Shown here: piece by piece, positions 1 through 31,785 of the stretch
Layout: every line of letters begins with the position of its first letter
Position numbering within the stretch: position 1 is the first letter of the stretch
NCBI GenBank assembly: GCA_030264375.1
Contig: JASCQW010000072.1
Coordinates: 47,543,394 to 47,606,479, forward strand
Length of the DNA: 63,086 nt
Source of the DNA: Carcharhinus longimanus
Lineage: Eukaryota
Reading direction: 5' to 3'
Program-made: the position numbers and the translations under genes
Notes under the pieces: generated by a model
Database searches by the model: none
Seen by the model: only the letters and a program-made list of their open reading frames with translations
Told to the model about the DNA's origin: nothing

Positions 1-1573
1 AATTTTACTTCCATGCTAGGCTCTGCTCCATCAGTTTTCCTGCCAACCACAGCTGAGTATGGGAGGGAGGAAGTGGAAGTACCATCGTGTTTCTTGGTGT
101 GCTTTGTTTCATCTCTCTTGGGGCCTTTCCTCGGCACTCTGTTCAGGACAAATTCAATTGGTTTCTTCACTGCCCGGCTCTCTAGATTGGCGGCGATTTT
201 GCCAAGGTAACGGGTTGACTTCTTGTGCACCACAGTTATATGTCGGACCACGTCCCTCTTGCGACGTGTCTCGTAGGTGCAAAGGGGGCACTTGTAGAAC
301 TTGACATAAATATTGTTGCCATCTGTGTGCAGCTCGATGTGCTTTGTCAGGTTCTGCTTGGAGGTAAACTGTCTCTTGCACAGCTTACAGTAAAGCTGCT
401 TGAAGTCAAATCCCATTGAGAGCTTGGGCTTTCTGGGCTTGGAGTGGCCAGCTGCTGCAGTCAGACTTGAAGTCTTTGGGCTGTCATTCTCTTGCTTCAC
501 TTTGTTTTTCGGTATTGGAGTGACTTTGGTCTCACTCATTTGGTTTGAGGCTTTGGACTCGCTCTGAGGAGAGGGCTTGTTGGTAGGCAGCGAGGCCTCC
601 GCATTGCCTGTGCAGTAGGCACTAGCTTCAGTCACTTCCAAGCAACGTGCCACAGCTGTGCCCTGCTCCGGAGATTTGGACAGACTCTCTCCCAGATTTA
701 TTTTGTGCACAATCAACATGTGGCGTTTCAGCATGACCTGTGAGCTGTACTTTCTTTTGCACAAAAGACACTTGCATGCTGTCAGGTTGTACTCAGCCTT
801 TGAGGAAGACTTGCGCCTGCGGGGTGCAGAAGCTACCAAATGCTCAGGGAATGACTCTTCCAAGCTGAGTGGCTGTCCAGGTTTGGTGGCAATGTCAGGA
901 GTGATGCAGTCCCTCCTCAGACCTCTGTGCACCTCATCAAAATGCCTACGCACATTTGCTTTTGTGGCAAAGAACTTGTGGCAGACAGGGCAGTTCCTGC
1001 CTACGGTGACCACGCCAATGCCCTTGGACCGCCTTCTAGTGTTAGAGAGGGGGGACTGGTGCCCCACACGGTTCTTGGTTTCAATATACTTCTTCAGCTC
1101 TTCCATCCTCTTCTTATGCACTTTTCTAATGTGCCGCCGCACACTACGCCGGGAATTGAACGTTTTTGCACAAAGGCAGCAGACCAAGTGGGGAGCAAGA
1201 CTGGAACCATTGGAGATCTCCATCTCTGGAAGGAGGGGTTCTGGGCTATGTTCTAATTTTTGTGCTTCTACTTCTTTCTTTATAAACTCTGAAGGGGCTG
1301 ATCCTGCATGATCCAACTCTTCCGCTGGTACAATCTCAGGAATCTTTTCAATGTCTGCCTCTTGTATTGGCAATGGGCTGGAGGTTTGTGGACTGTATGT
1401 CTCTACATTGATGACTGTTTCATCGATTCTAGTTACATGTTGATACACTGCATTCTGGTTTGTTTCAATTGGTTCTAGTTTGATTATGTAGTCTTGCTTA
1501 TCAACCCGAGGGTAAATTGCTTCCAGAAGTTCCCGTATAGTGCGGCTCTGTTTATCATTTGCATCTGGGAAAT
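1..1573 (-). CDS. ZNF800: ZNF800 large C2H2 zinc-finger exon (3' end outside window)
   Basis: Acceptor ctcttctcaccactttag|ATTTCC at 1574-1575, phase 1. Frame is consistent from 1571 to base 3: (H)FPDANDKQSRTIRELLEAIYPRVDKQDYIIKLEPIETNQNAV...CCLCAKTFNSRRSVRRHIRKVHKKRMEELKKYIE...CPVCHKFFATKANVRRHFDEVHRGLRRDCITPDIATKPGQPL...CKCLLCKRKYSSQVMLKRHMLIVH...GFDFKQLYCKLCKRQFTSKQNLTKHIELHTDGNNIYVKFYKCPLCTYETRRKRDVVRHITVVH...PSMEVK. Near-identical to recalled vertebrate ZNF800. Confidence 0.97.
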
Positions 1574-18058: not shown

Positions 18059-18641
18059 AGTGGGACTTCAGCCTGAACCTTATGATTAAGAGGCAAGTGT
18101 ATTGCCTACTTTTTTATTACTGGGACAGGAAAGAGGATATATCAGGGGTGTAATGCTGAGAAAAAGGTTGGGGCAGAAGAGAGAGAGGATCAGATGCAAC
18201 AGTGAGACAGAAAGAGTGAATCGGAAGAGAGGGTGAGGCATGAGAGGGTGCATCATGGTTGCAGCACTGAAACAGAGAGGAGAATTTTTTTCTCCTTAGT
18301 TAGACATTTGACATTGATTTGGAACACAACTCCACCGAATCTCAAACATAAAAAGTCAATCTGGTTACCTCATACCACCAAGAATCATTACTGCAGTAAA
18401 GATTTTCTCGTCTGTCACTATCAATCGGACAACAGGCACGACAACTTAATGAAATTTGAAACTCTACACGTAGGATACATATTCTNNNNNNNNNNTTTAT
18501 GGTCAATGCTGGCTTTTAAAGCACAGCCAGAGACAAAAGGAATAAGTTTGTATGTTTCAAGAATACAGAGCCAGTCCAAACTGTTCTGAATAATACGCAA
18601 ATCTAGATCCTGGTGCAAAAGAATAAATTCTAAAAACTTAC

Positions 18642-18785
18642 GTTCATCCATCTTTGGGCTTGGGAAGCAGTAAAATTCCTTATGTGTGATAAGATTGGGC
18701 AGTCCTCTAAATAGGCTTCGACACAGTTTGCATTCAAAGATAGTGTCTACCTCTCTCAGCAGAACATGTTTCAGTTGTGTCGTTC
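18642..18785 (-). CDS. ZNF800: ZNF800 coding exon, 144 nt, first C2HC-type finger
   Basis: ttttttgcacacag|GAACG...GATGAAC|gtaagt. Encodes (G)[47 protein letters not shown]. Phase 1-1, joins in frame to the 1573 exon. Confidence 0.97.
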
Positions 18786-20166
18786 CTGTGTGCAAAAAAA
18801 TCACATACATTCAACAGAAATGTACCAAAATAAAAATTCTTAAAGTAAAGATTTTCATAATTGGATATTTCCATGATTACCATTATATATTGTTTTCTAA
18901 ACTTTTTCAAAAAGCTGCACGAAATTTTTTAAAAATTCCTTCAGTTGAATTAGGATTTTATTAGATACAAAATTGAACACAGCATATATGGAAAGCAGTT
19001 TCATAGTGAAACTGTTAAGCTACAATGGCCTTCACTCTCTCGATTTGCATGTCAGCTTGCAACAAAATACTAAGTGCTTAAAATAACCATTAACGTTTAA
19101 AATGTGCACACAAGACAATGTAAAGTGAAGAAAATGATAGAAGTAAAATGACGTAATCCACTGTGTGACACTGATCTGTTCAATTTCATTTCTATTCACG
19201 TTGCAGGTAATAAAATGACGTCAACACTTGAGTTTTGGGTTGCACAAGGCCTTTCAATCCATGTTTCTGTTCTTGCTTTGCGGGGATGGGGGTGCACACA
19301 CTCAAAATACTGTGGCTTGAATTTTCTGTTCAGCGCTGCCTGCCTGAAGCTTGGTACTGCAGAAATGCCCCTCATAATTCTTGTTAGAAACTTGATGGGA
19401 GATTTTGGTGGTGTTCATCAAAACCTTATTGTACTGAACTGATCAACAATTATTAAAATCTGAATTGTGGCACAATGATCTCAAGATTTGCTTTCACTTG
19501 TAAGAAGACTTTACTTCTTTTGGCAAAATGTCACAATACCCATTTCATTTTTGAATCGCCATTATTATGTATTCTTGTCAAAGTGGAACTAATGCTGCCA
19601 ACAGTTGGTTTTGCATTGGTGCACATTCCCATCTTAAAAATTGTACACCAGATGTCATATCAGAATGCAGGTGAATGCCAACACAGGCATGAAAACGCAG
19701 AATGAAAACATCATTAATAGTCCTGCTGGCAAGAGGTAACACTAAATTCATGTGACCACTGTTCCCATAAACACATATTACACACAATGAGAATGTTATG
19801 GATTTAAGAGTGAAGAATTAACACCATATAAGTAGTTATGAAAACTTATTCTGTCAGCCAGAAATACTATCTCAACAGACTGTAAAAAAAACCTGTAAAT
19901 TACCTGAGTACAATGAGATTATGGTAACAGTCAGAAAGGGAATAGTCATTTCAGTTGCAAAGTCATCATTCACTGGAGTCTGATAAAATCTACCTGCTTG
20001 ACTTCACTTATTGTTTTAAGCCATTAAAGAAAGGACGTAAGATTAATTTTCCGATTAAATCTATATTGACTCATCTTAAGCAGTGAATTATGGAAGTACA
20101 GACTCATTGTACAGACTATGGTATAAAATTGCACAACAGAACTGTCAGTAAGCCATTAGTCTGTAC

Positions 20167-20262
20167 CTGTCCGAAAACACTCAATGATTTGCTGAATTCC
20201 TGATTTTGAAGTTGGAAGCTGTTGTTGTAACAAAGGAGGGTCTCCTGGCTCCTGTGTGTATG
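20167..20262 (-). CDS. ZNF800: ZNF800 coding exon, 96 nt
   Basis: ctttacag|CATACA...CGGACAG|gtacag. Encodes (A)[31 protein letters not shown](G), matching recalled ZNF800 [29 protein letters not shown]. Confidence 0.96.
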
Positions 20263-20415
20263 CTGTAAAGTTGATATATAAGAAGCAAAGGAAAGTGATA
20301 CTGGGACATTGAAATACAGTTACCACTTCTTAAACACACACACACACACAACAGGATCAAATCTACTTCACATCCAGGGTAAAAGTACACTGTATGATAT
20401 AAATAACAAACTTAC

Positions 20416-20468
20416 GAATGCATTTCGACGAAGTCCCTTTGTCCATGATTTCAAAATAAGGTTTGCAC
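20416..20468 (-). other. Candidate alternative ZNF800 exon with strong-Kozak ATG (MDKGTSSKCI, phase 1)
   Basis: ATCATGG at 20446. Ten codons plus 1 nt, then donor gtaagt at 20414-20415, in frame with exon 20167-20262. Acceptor at 20469-20470 is weak. Confidence 0.4.
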
Positions 20469-22717
20469 CTAATTTCATCCATTCAGCAAACAGGTAGACG
20501 AATTTGCTACAAACCCAATACCATGCTTGTTTATCGCACAGCAAAATTTCACACTTGTAGGGAGTTCAACATTAAAATGCACTAGTCTCATAGATAACAA
20601 AATGGTACAATGCTAATAGATATCCCACTGTGTTTCACATAACAAATTAGATGCCACGCTGCTTCAAAATAACAGGAATGTAATACTATGCAACACAAAG
20701 TACTGTGCTGCTGCTGGGGTGAAACTGTTTCAGCTGGACTGTTTCTTTAAGGCCATCAAATCTAAATGCTGTAAGTAAACACAGCTGGAGGTCAACCAGA
20801 GTCTAATTGCTATTTGCTAAAGGAAGTTCAGATTGGAAAGTACTTACAAATTTCTGCCCCCATATCAGGATGGCAGACAGAATGAAAGGATTACATTTTG
20901 AATTATTTTAGCATTTATTGATAACACTTAAATCATTTCTAATAGTGAATTTATTTTAGCTTGTTTCAGATATGTATCAAGGATGTTACTGCTAAGTGGT
21001 TAACGTTCAAAGAAAGCAAAATAATCAAACAAATAATAGTACAGCAAACCACTGTAACAACAACAAAGAAAATGTTGCATTGAGAAGGGAAAGAGTAAGC
21101 AATAAAGGCAAAAATGAATAATTGTAATATTTGGACACTACAGTGAATTGAATTACTTCTCGACATCTTAATGGGAATCACATAAAATTAACATTTGTGG
21201 ATTGGTGTCTTCCACCAAGTGCCACTTCCATTTGACAACGATAAAGACAGGACTGCACTATTTGCCCCAGAACTACTTCCCGGTGGGTCTCCAAGACACA
21301 AGCACATCATGTGCTGTATCGTGGAATACATGCCTATTTAAAACTACCTTTTGCTTTAATGGTCAGTTAATGGGGCCTATATCTTATTTAGCGTTTTAGC
21401 ATCATTTCCCATCGGTCTGTCAGGGCTGTGTTAAATAACAATGCTATCTTTGAGCAGCTTCTCCCACTTCCCAATCCACGTGCTCAGCCTCTCCTGCTCC
21501 CTCATCTTTTAACTTGCTGGCTCTCCCATTCCCTCACCCTCCAACTTGTAGCCTCTCCCACTCCCACACCCTCCAATGTGCAGCCCCTCCCCCACCTGAC
21601 CCTCTAACTTGCAGCATCTCCCACTCCCTCACCTGTTGCTATTGGAATGTAACCAATGATAACATTGGATCTGTTGTAGAGACCAATGATAACATGCTGC
21701 AAGGGTCAGCTGACCCAGCAAACTACGTAACCAATGACAAAACGATGTGGTGGTCAGCTGCTGGGGATTGTGGAGGCTTGTAATGGTTCAAGGTGAGGTC
21801 TCGAGTGTTGGAGTAATGATGTTTTTTATTAAACCTTTTTCTTTGATTTACAAGTTGGAGTATATTTTGTTTCATTTTATTGCCAATAACTGAAGAGTCC
21901 CTTCCGCTGGATCAACAGTGGCATCTTCTTCCCTCACCTTGCAAATTGCAGCCTCACCTTCCAACCTGCTCTGCTTCCCGACTCTCCCCCTCACCGATTC
22001 CTGCTCTCGCAAAACCTCCTAATTGCCATTTCCCTCTCCTAAACCAGCTCAAGATCCCAAAGCTGGAGCTCCAGGGCTGAAAAGTGCGAAACCTGATGAT
22101 GCAGCAGTGTCGAGCTAGGGCTTTTATAATCTGAATGTTTTTTAAAAATTATCAAAGTGCCTCCTCCTGCATCTCAGCACTCATTTGCGGAACCTGATTT
22201 TAAAACATGAATTGTAACATCCCCAGCTCAGTACCTGCATACCATCAGGATTCCCACTTTCACAACCTGAAGCTCCAATATTGGATCAGGTCTGGATCCT
22301 GAACAGAAATGCAGGTTGGGCGTGAGGGAGGGCAGGCGAGGGGGAAGGTTAGGAAACGCGAGAGGGGTCAGGGAGAGGAAGAGTCTGCTACAGCCAAGAG
22401 GGTCAGAAGTTCAATGTGTCGTGAGCAAAAGGATCAGGAAGCAGGATCAGCAGCAAGTGGAAGAAATCACAAGTAGAAAGTTACCATATTTTTAAACTTA
22501 TTTTGTTTTCAAGATTATTTAATTTACCAATAAGACTTCAGCAATGTAAAATATATCAACTTGCATGTTGTAATCTATTTTTGTTTGGCAAGGAAGTTCT
22601 TACAGAATCTATATCTTTTACACTGGTTTTAATGGGAAAACACGATTCACTCAAATTGCTTCACTTAAAAGTTGTGATTTTCAGGGACGCAACTAAAAAA
22701 GTTTGAAGTGGACTTAC

Positions 22718-22726
22718 CATACAATC
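22718..22726 (-). CDS. ZNF800: Candidate 9-nt ZNF800 microexon (inserts G-L-Y)
   Basis: Branch-like ctaat, ~25-nt pyrimidine tract, two TGC motifs, then aaacag|GATTGTATG|gtaagt. Frame-preserving, no stop. Confidence 0.6.
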
Positions 22727-22869
22727 CTGTTTCCAGCATCATCAGCATGTTACAAAGAAAAGGGGAGGGAAAGAGGAAATCGGATTAGACTAAAAATGCT
22801 GAACTTGATGATTTCTATTGCTTCTTAAATAAATTTGTGAAGCTGATTTGCAAAGCCATTTTACCATAC

Positions 22870-22960
22870 CTGGTTCACAGCAGCCATGGTGGTGGTGCTC
22901 TGTCTGACAACATTTATCTCTCTGCAGTGATTTCTGAATTCGTGACCTATTTTCTTCCAT
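22870..22960 (-). CDS. ZNF800: ZNF800 first clearly homologous coding exon (whole exon 22870-22984)
   Basis: Acceptor cattttttgtgtctag at 22985-22986, ATG at 22960, donor CCAG|gtatgg. Encodes MEENRSRIQKSLQRDKCCQTEHHHHGCCEP, compared with recalled human MPLRDKYCQTDHHHHGCCEP. The 24 nt upstream of the ATG are also open in frame. Confidence 0.92.
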
Positions 22961-23329
22961 ATCAGTTTCATTCCGGCTATTATTCTAGACACAAAAAATG
23001 AATAAACGTTACAAACCACAATTTTTTTTCACATATAGATATTCAAATTCATTATAGTACCACTCAGATTTGATGTTTCTTAAAGTTCTAACTTCAAGAA
23101 AATAAAGGTTTGGTGGACCGAACAGCCAGATTACCAAGTGCATAAAAACACGCTCAGTGTAGCAATAAGTCACATACCAATAAGTCCCAGCTTTCAATTT
23201 AAGCTGGGATGACAATTGGAGAATTCTACATGAAAAGTGCGCATGTGGGTGCACGGGCAGAAAGTGGGCGCGGGTGCTTGGGAAAATTAAGAGTGGGTTT
23301 CAGAAGTTTGTGGAGAATGGGGTGTTAGT

Positions 23330-29350: not shown

Positions 29351-31785
29351 TTTTTTTAATATTACTGTAATTTTTGTGGCTTTGTCACAAAAAGCAACAA
29401 CCATACCAATGTCACCCAAGGGACAAAACAGCAGAGATGATCAAATTGCTGCACAGTGTCAAAAGCACAAGCCGTCATAGTCTATGCTTATGGATCATGT
29501 TTTTCTTTTCACTCTTCAAAGACAAAATTAATTGTAATGCAGAAGTTCTGAAATTTATTTGGATTACATATAATTTACAGCACAGAAAAAAGCCATTCAG
29601 CAATGGATCTGCCAATGCTCATATTCCATGCAAGCTATTCCTTGGTTCCCGAATACCGACATCAAACACTGTCATTTGAGGTTTATCAGATCAGTTGACA
29701 ATCTAAAACACAATTAAATTCAATGGGAACAGCTTCAGATTTACCAGATTTCGTTTGCGCAGTGCAGCATTTGTCCTATCCATTGCCACACGACAAATTT
29801 ATTTTGGAAGTTCCAAGTGTGACCTGGAAAATAAAAAGTCCAGATGTGTTTTGCCATGTAGTAAAACTTAATTACTTTTCAACTCTTAAAGATATGCTAT
29901 TTCTGCTCAAAATTTAATAGCGCGAGTGCAAAAACAAATTCCTTCTCACTCTACGAAAAAAACATTACATTTTGGGAAATGTCAAAAATGCTTTAAAGAC
30001 AAAAATTCATTTTGAGGAGTAAAGACATTCTGAAAGCATTTTGGCTTTCAGAAATTATCCCTTAAAGGGTTACTTCAAGGATTCTGGTTGCTGCTGTTCC
30101 AGGAAAAGACAGCAGGTTACAGGAAAGAGTAATTAAGCAGTTTTAAAAAAGCTGGAAACGCCTTGACCCTGGTGAACTGTTTGTAAAAGGGTCATATGTT
30201 TATTATGACTTGGAAAGAAAATCATGCCTGGAAAAATGCATTTAAAAGCTGTTACAGCTGGTTGTGCTTTGGGGATCAAGGAGTGACAATTGTTTGGGTA
30301 AAGGCAACAATAGATCCTGAAGTTCAAGACCCAACTGAAAGGAGGAAAAAAAGTGAATAGAAGTTGCTCCATTTTCTGAAGTCAACGATTGTAAGTTTTC
30401 TGCGAAGTCTGCTTGAAAAATAGTGCATGAGTCATCAATTGTTTTACAGGTTAGGGCCGACAGACCAACTGCATAATTCGGATATCATTCCAAGGAATCC
30501 ATCATCCATCCTTTTCCCCTTGAGCTATTAACTTTTAACGTTTTGGCAGAACTGAATTTTTTGTGTGTGTGCATAATAAAGAGTTAGGGTACTTAAGAGT
30601 AATTAACATACTTTCATACTGTACGTTCATTAGGTTTGTCTTTTACTTGACAGGTCTGATTTAATAATAAACTAATAATTTTGTTGTTTATTGAGTGGCT
30701 ATTCTGCCCAAAGGTTAAAAGTCAACATATAAACTTTTTTAATACGTGCATGGTGTCAGCTAGAACCCAGCTCTTTTCTCTGGGAGCTCTTCTGCTTTCT
30801 CACACCACCCACTAGCTTAAGCTGTCAATTACTGTTTTATATATTAGAGAATTGATTAACATAATCAAACAAAGATCAAACTATTGACACTACAATAACG
30901 AAATAAGAATAGTTTACCAAAGCAGATGGATTAGTTGCTGTTGAGAATTTACTTTTCACTGCCAATTCAACAGTATTTCCTGTTCACCTGTGAATGGAAG
31001 AGGAAAAAAAAGTACTGAAATGTACTCAACTTCTGATACCTTCAACTGTTAAATTTTATTTTACATACTTCCGTACAGGGCTTGAAAAATGCCCCTCTAC
31101 TGGGCTAAAAGCGGTAGGATCATATTCTACGTAGACCAGATTTCTTTCAAGCAGGGAATTATCCCCAAAGATGGTGCTCAAATATTATAGACATAAAAGT
31201 GGAATTTAACAACCTTAAAGCTGAACGGAGTAGAGGCAGGGAGAAACCCTACATGCGTGCACCAGCCAACATGAAGGTAGGAATTTTATTTGATAGGAAC
31301 GCGAATATTAGTCCTTATGTGGTTAATATATTTTTGAGCAAATTTTGGTGTTTTTTGTTTAAAGGATAGTCCTCTATGTAGCCTGTCTTATTTGAGTGTA
31401 AGCTTTATTTCTTTATGTACCCAAATGATATTCTGGAGGAGGAAGAGAAAGATCGATTTTGAAGGAGGATTTTATGTACATTGAAGTGCATTAACAGCGG
31501 CAAATAAGCTCCAATTCTGAGCTCTTGCTTCAACGATGCGTGGAGGAAATTTAAAATCTTACATCTGATGAAATAGACAGCAGTGGTTTTATTTTTCAGG
31601 TATGATTACAAGACATGAAAAAAACAAAATAATTTTGGAATAACCACATGACCCAAGCCGAAAGGTCACGCAGCACAGTCAACCTTTGATAGTTGGGCCA
31701 GGTTCAATATTCAATAACAGCCTCAAATATTTTACGTATAATAGCATAACTGCAGACGTTAAAAGGAAAACAAAAAAAAGACAAT

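Follow-up and report, generated by a model that had tools for sequence, protein, structure and literature searches.

Does the intron that follows the HHHHGCCEP-encoding exon of a shark ZNF800 gene contain a genuine exon of only nine nucleotides and, if so, is that exon confined to neurons? The question arose from a stretch of Carcharhinus longimanus DNA (63,086 nt of contig JASCQW010000072.1; hereafter the window), on the minus strand of which the original prediction had placed a candidate neural-type microexon adding Gly-Leu-Tyr to the protein. The minus strand of the window carries most of the ZNF800 gene (Table 1), whose identity was established by homology over the zinc-finger exon together with the N-terminal exons.

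Table 1. Features of the ZNF800 locus, in window coordinates. Positions such as -21 are counted upstream from the microexon.
Feature	Position	Strand	Evidence or remark
Exon D, large C2H2-finger exon	1..1573	-	Extends past the window edge; 96% identity to Mustelus asterias ZNF800-like, 85% to Scyliorhinus canicula, as for a carcharhiniform
Exon C, 144 nt	18642..18785	-	ZFPM2-like CCHC finger, PF25445, E 1.4e-5 (slightly below the Pfam cut-off, on P0002); in transcript contigs
Exon B, 96 nt	20167..20262	-	Encodes the conserved EPGDPPLL motif; in transcript contigs
Downstream intron, 2,455 nt	20263..22717	-	Transcript contigs
Donor GTAAGT (consensus)	22712..22717	-	Score 6.6
Microexon, 9 nt, GATTGTATG	22718..22726	-	Phase 1-1, in frame; sequence, and spliced in 3/3 transcript runs of relatives
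Upstream intron, 143 nt, donor GTATGG, acceptor CAG	22727..22869	-	Sequence; spliced out of RNA contigs
TGC at -12, also a YGCY motif	22736..22738	-	Sequence
TGC at -21, also a YGCY motif	22745..22747	-	Sequence
Pure pyrimidine tract, 26 nt, -53 to -28	22754..22779	-	Holds UCU/CUC elements
CTAAT, branch-point-like, A at -59	22784..22788	-	Sequence; putative use
Exon A, 115 nt	22870..22984	-	Sequence and transcript contigs
DKCCQTE codons, LC8/DYNLL-type motif	22898..22918	-	Exon A; Q and T invariant in 60/60; putative binding
Upstream ATG exon, coding part MDRTNAALRKRNL	29745..29783	-	Homology

Ahead of the ATG exon, acceptor-like pyrimidine-rich sites occur on the minus strand in the region 31048-30990 (one ending near 31000) and, with others, at about 29850-29745; they suggest that further 5' UTR exons may lie upstream. 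The downstream intron contains a multi-copy repeat (21640-21920), at which contigs were up to 120-fold more numerous and depth in a DNA run reached thousands; this repeat, which also occurs in transcript contigs, adjoins an imperfect 32-nt tandem array (21485-21633).

A 9-nt exon of ZNF800 is spliced in related sharks

A search of sequencing runs with exon D returned 21 runs, 19 of which matched the exon in whole or in part; 13 of these were guessed to be RNA, although none was recorded as such, and no run carried a tissue or library label. Four of the 21 were compared over positions 18600-23100, namely X1, X15 and X3 (organisms A, D and C, from three studies) and the DNA-type run X17 (organism H). 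X1, X15 and X3 each yielded one continuous contig (1,131, 3,594 and 3,801 nt) across exons A, B and C, and because these contigs jump the introns the runs behave as transcripts. The DNA of X17 formed a single piece from 21837 to 23100 (1,264 nt), in which 37 letters differed and 4 gaps occurred.

In all three transcript runs, position 20263 was joined to 22869 with 7 letters between them. Together with a shared base on each side, these letters correspond exactly to window positions 22718-22726, a 9-mer that is present once in the window. The chance of 7 letters matching a site named beforehand is ~1.7e-4. A 9-nt shift of the donor or acceptor at the flanking splice sites was rejected as the source of the insert, since the letters would differ. 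The junction proposed as a check, exon A to 9 nt to exon B, was therefore found in three of three transcript assemblies, representing three organisms and three studies; the predicted 9-nt exon of ZNF800 is real, in frame and spliced in three close relatives. The signature of splice signals alone can find real exons of this size.

Relative to the window, the organisms with microexon contigs show 1, 2 and 12 differences across 358 exon letters. At 12 differences in 358, identity of all nine nucleotides would be expected by chance with P ~0.74, so that their identity in the most distant organism shows the presence of the exon and not selection upon it. Among the joints listed for X1, X15 and X3, none connected exon A to exon B without the microexon. 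Furthermore, the depths of the exon A and exon B bins equal the depth of the single contig multiplied by its share of the bin, from which it follows that a second, skipping contig is absent there. The included form is dominant in the three samples; contigs drop minor forms, and occasional skipping is compatible with these data.

Splice signals and a proposed route to inclusion

Inclusion of the microexon keeps the frame open and converts CCEP-AYTQ to CCEP-GLY-AYTQ, the three residues being predicted to follow Pro51. The exon is internal, falls at 9 nt within the size class of microexons (3-27 or 3-30 nt) and is bounded by a canonical AG..GT pair (CAG, GTAAGT). The sequence details originally given for it, comprising the AG/GT boundaries, the 143-nt intron, CTAAT, the tract, TGC at -21 and -12, phase 1-1 and the lack of a stop codon, were all correct on the minus strand, and the pyrimidine tract, put at about 25 nt, was measured as a pure run of 26. 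It is the longest of four pyrimidine runs of at least 20 nt in the window, with TCT at -48 and -32 and CTC at -49 and -41. AG is absent from -64 to -3, leaving 61 nt AG-free before the acceptor. Scored with one home-made matrix, built from approximate frequencies and used with base counts in place of MaxEntScan or SVM-BP, the microexon donor (6.6) exceeded those of exon A (4.8), exon C (4.1) and exon B (1.1). Conversely, the proximal 3' site is weak, with 6 pyrimidines in the 15 positions from -20 to -6, where the four ordinary acceptors of the gene have 10-11.

Across both strands of the window, 8,359 HAG..GT segments of 3-27 nt were counted. A donor score of at least 5 was reached by 68, and when a pyrimidine run of at least 10 was also demanded only the microexon was left; looser cut-offs passed 3 segments. 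Because the matrix frequencies are approximate and the choice of cut-offs followed sight of the site, this screen provides a ranking and not a P value.

The available text of one preprint describes neural microexons as having a strong but distal tract and branch point, a weak proximal 3' site, and UCU/CUC followed by UGC (bioRxiv 10.1101/2024.09.17.613571). In the part available of a second, their branch points lie at a median distance of 45-47 nt as against 34, and the region between branch point and AG tends to be unpaired (bioRxiv 10.64898/2026.01.16.699960). The SRRM3/SRRM4-type 3' architecture claimed for the shark exon was matched in its distal tract, UGC at -21 and -12, strong donor and weak 3' site. 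A 14-pair stem (22803-22789 with 22746-22732, minus strand) was predicted to cover both TGC motifs and to loop out the branch point and the tract; mean pairing at the two UGC motifs was 0.65-0.67 and 0.99-1.0, and the tract was unpaired. The z-score was -2.0 for an 80-nt folding window (15 of 500 shuffles) and 0.1-0.7 for three longer ones. Being notable only on the shortest window folded, the stem (22732-22803) was rejected as a significant structure.

The arrangement of these signals suggests how the exon may be included. The 143-nt upstream intron would be short enough for definition across the intron, with U1 on the exon A donor, U2AF on the 26-nt tract and U2 on the branch point near -59. 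The first AG downstream of the branch point, reached after 61 AG-free nt, would serve as the microexon acceptor. Exon A and the 9 nt would then act together as a 124-nt exon of the ordinary kind, whose donor is stronger than exon A's own (6.6 rather than 4.8) and which could be spliced to exon B over the 2,455-nt intron. The two UGC motifs may allow SRRM3/4 to raise neuronal inclusion without being required for it.

We infer the order of intron removal, as we do tissue breadth and the effect on the protein (below). According to the available portion of one study, upstream-first removal goes with a downstream intron whose length is large compared with that of the upstream one, a nearby branch point and a strong 3' site are common among upstream-first exons, and SRRM4-dependent microexons are mostly downstream-first (58% vs 26%) (PMC10250204). 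An upstream-first order is thus favoured by the long downstream intron (2,455 vs 143 nt) and disfavoured by the remoteness of the branch point and the weakness of the 3' site.

Phylogenetic spread and tissue range

Of 324 proteins examined, 183 possessed both anchors of the exon A/exon B junction; the other 141 were without one anchor and hence uninformative. A three-residue insert at this junction was found in none of the 183. Of the 34 chondrichthyan proteins 30 were informative (22 species by name); Gly-Leu-Tyr is absent from all 30, that of Mustelus asterias included, and they show the skip form. Protein and cluster searches turned up neither a protein carrying the insert nor a shark protein derived from transcripts that spans the junction. 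Of the 8 loci returned by a metagenome scan, 7 were matches by chance; the other, an amniote-type locus (L001), contains a ZNF800 exon, and no microexon-like site was present in the 1,502 nt covered of its incomplete intron.

Searched by title and abstract, the literature yielded no report of a ZNF800 microexon or of shark ZNF800; VastDB and the bioRxiv supplements, which cover Callorhinchus exons, may list it. ZNF800 was likewise absent from the searched supplements of PMC12626420, PMC7821500 and PMC4317164 and from the main text of 10.64898/2026.09.05.749416. The impression behind the original prediction that the exon had not been annotated is borne out by the 183 informative proteins, 30 of them chondrichthyan. 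In the proteins and literature checked the microexon is unannotated, and it is a new exon of a known microexon class. The gene model therefore requires correction, in that the dominant assembled ZNF800 transcript of three shark samples contains an exon missing from the checked proteins.

Standard mappers lose exons of 9-21 nt, as the available text of one report describes (PMC4317164), and absence from gene models accordingly says little about distant sharks. The microexon looks, on thin data, to be restricted to some sharks, and probably is. Jawed-vertebrate ZNF800 and znf800a proteins share with the shark gene the QT, HHHHGCCEP, EPGDPP, CCHC and C2H2 elements, but none of the 183 informative proteins has the three-residue insert of the shark transcripts. 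Several teleost ZNF800a proteins (P0115, P0119, P0152, P0165, P0168 and P0245; tarpon, eel, conger and bonefish-type) are longer by 12-24 residues at this junction. As homologues of the shark microexon these were rejected on comparison of the proteins, being longer and unrelated in sequence; they indicate that the A/B junction tolerates inserts. Mammalian and bird isoforms P0011, P0015, P0052, P0263 and P0264 omit exon B, joining CCEP to GTKQ, so that in amniotes the exon A donor is used in alternative splicing.

In which tissues, then, is the microexon used? The label neuron-specific appears doubtful. We give an even chance to the reading that inclusion of this genuine in-frame exon of three relatives' ZNF800 mRNA extends to many tissues and is not confined to neurons. 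Use beyond neurons is likely because three of three runs, picked blind to tissue, include the exon; the probability of three neural picks is 0.008-0.064, assuming that 20-40% of runs are neural. Broad inclusion is also supported by the short upstream intron, by the strongest donor of the four and by the AG-free zone. Human ZNF800 is ubiquitously expressed, as stated in the part available of PMC10819080, and this too counts against use in neurons alone. The weights given to this reading and its rivals are judgements, in which a prior favouring neural use was set against the 3/3 inclusion.

Comparison with constitutive micro-exons cuts both ways. These are flanked by shorter introns, their splice sites are stronger, 96% of them carry a U2AF2 motif 10-20 nt upstream, and they become rare at small sizes (available text of PMC4317164). 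With this class, and with the included clusters described in the available part of PMC7821500, the shark exon shares a short flanking intron, a strong donor and dominant inclusion in all samples. It differs in being without the pyrimidine-rich stretch from -20 to -5 and in having a size rare for the class (PMC4317164, same portion). Broad inclusion is thereby weakened, the 3' site being neural-like and, with its 6 of 15 pyrimidines, unlike that of the constitutive class. The skip form of the 30 chondrichthyan proteins is weak counter-evidence, given that mappers miss exons of 9-21 nt.

It is possible, though rather unlikely, that the microexon is instead neuron-specific (perhaps endocrine or retinal) and dependent on SRRM3/4, in which case all three runs would be neural or retinal. 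The weak proximal 3' site would be ignored in most cells, and SRRM3/4 bound at UGC would recruit early spliceosome factors, probably after removal of the downstream intron. Such behaviour is what the neural signature of distal tract and branch point, UCU/CUC then UGC, strong donor and weak 3' site would lead one to expect, and the response of human microexons to SRRM4 is shared by their shark orthologues (bioRxiv 2024.09.17.613571, available text). That all 30 informative chondrichthyan proteins show only the skip form is also consistent with it. However, inclusion in three of three tissue-blind runs, with no skip contig, is improbable unless all three were neural. Additionally, the predicted stem, itself weak evidence, pairs both UGC motifs in a region that tends to be unpaired in neural microexons. 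With the SRRM3/SRRM4 (nSR100) class (see also PMC12626420) the shark exon has in common a size of 3-27 nt, preservation of frame, a strong donor, a distal tract and UCU/CUC plus UGC. That class is typically conserved among vertebrates and enriched in neural tissue, whereas the shark exon gave no sign of itself in bony-vertebrate proteins or in one amniote-type intron segment, and is included in 3/3 samples without tissue labels; its placement in the class, made by architecture, is provisional.

PTBP1 is low in neurons, heart and muscle. We regard as unlikely a neuromuscular microexon that PTBP1, bound to the long tract, would repress in most cells and that would be included in those three tissues, possibly with the help of MBNL at YGCY. 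A wider set of tissues could yield 3/3 inclusion, the tract holds four PTB-type 4-mers and both TGC motifs lie within YGCY; these motifs are nevertheless short and common, and no RBFOX GCATG occurs in the upstream intron or in the 301 nt downstream. Precedent exists in mouse, where neuromuscular clusters include 83 heart and 106 skeletal-muscle microexons that are differentially included (available part of PMC7821500). Finally, it is very unlikely that the exon serves only the relatives and is silent or cryptic in the species of the window, or that the inserted letters have another origin: the RNA comes from relatives and none from organism G (0.99 match), but the inserted letters are the window's exon at a site named beforehand (~1.7e-4), two expressing organisms differ at only 1 and 2 of the 358 exon letters and no signal in the window is disrupted. 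As the RNA is that of relatives, splicing in C. longimanus itself is what we infer from their contigs.

Should the exon prove both lineage-restricted and broadly included despite its neural-type 3' site, it would constitute a natural test of the need for SRRM3/4, with the short upstream intron set against the UGC enhancer.

Protein context of the insert

In 60 aligned homologues, Q40, T41, E56, G58 and D59 never vary; conservation falls to 42-53 of the 60 for H43-C49 and to 12-29 for residues 52-55. The insert after P51 thus falls in a variable stretch between two conserved motifs, about 50 residues before the CCHC finger (102-124). It had been described as lying next to the His/Cys motif, and the adjacency holds; the less conserved His/Cys residues are, however, not the invariant elements, which are the flanking QT and E-x-G-D.

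The sequence D-K-x-C-Q-T-D/E matches the LC8/DYNLL motif at 5 of 6 fixed positions, a Cys at -1 replacing Thr, Val or Ile (motif as defined in the available text of PMC3078936 and PMC6607443). LC8/DYNLL may bind at DKCCQTE, as judged by sequence; many LC8-type anchors do not bind (PMC6607443, in the part available), and a search by title and abstract found no on-topic paper on ZNF800-DYNLL1 binding. The insert lies outside the motif itself. Gly-Leu-Tyr would lengthen the variable linker between the QT motif and EPGDPP from 14 to 17 residues, and a mild effect on spacing in the protein seems likely. From its conservation, the linker is presumably disordered. Any effect may be small, since zebrafish deletions of single microexons mostly have minimal or no phenotype (PMC12626420).

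Human ZNF800 is a repressor of enteroendocrine differentiation (PMC10819080, available part), and a neural or endocrine microexon would tie SRRM3/4 to a repressor already known to act on endocrine fate. An analogy may be drawn with REST4. Exon N of REST is a small exon of SRRM4 type in a repressor of neural and endocrine genes, and its inclusion truncates the repressor, whereas the shark exon keeps the frame and adds three linker residues. It is conceivable but distinctly unlikely that a shark lineage gained an SRRM3/4-responsive microexon in ZNF800, as a repressor acting on neural and endocrine genes, and that this exon retunes the repressor through the spacing of an LC8 dimerisation motif and EPGDPP, in a frame-preserving parallel to REST4; it may be a neural-type exon drifting to constitutive use.

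Outside the sharks, the QT pair persists in teleost ZNF800 copies without HHHHGCC, and a lamprey protein (P0259) has the canonical KGTQT.
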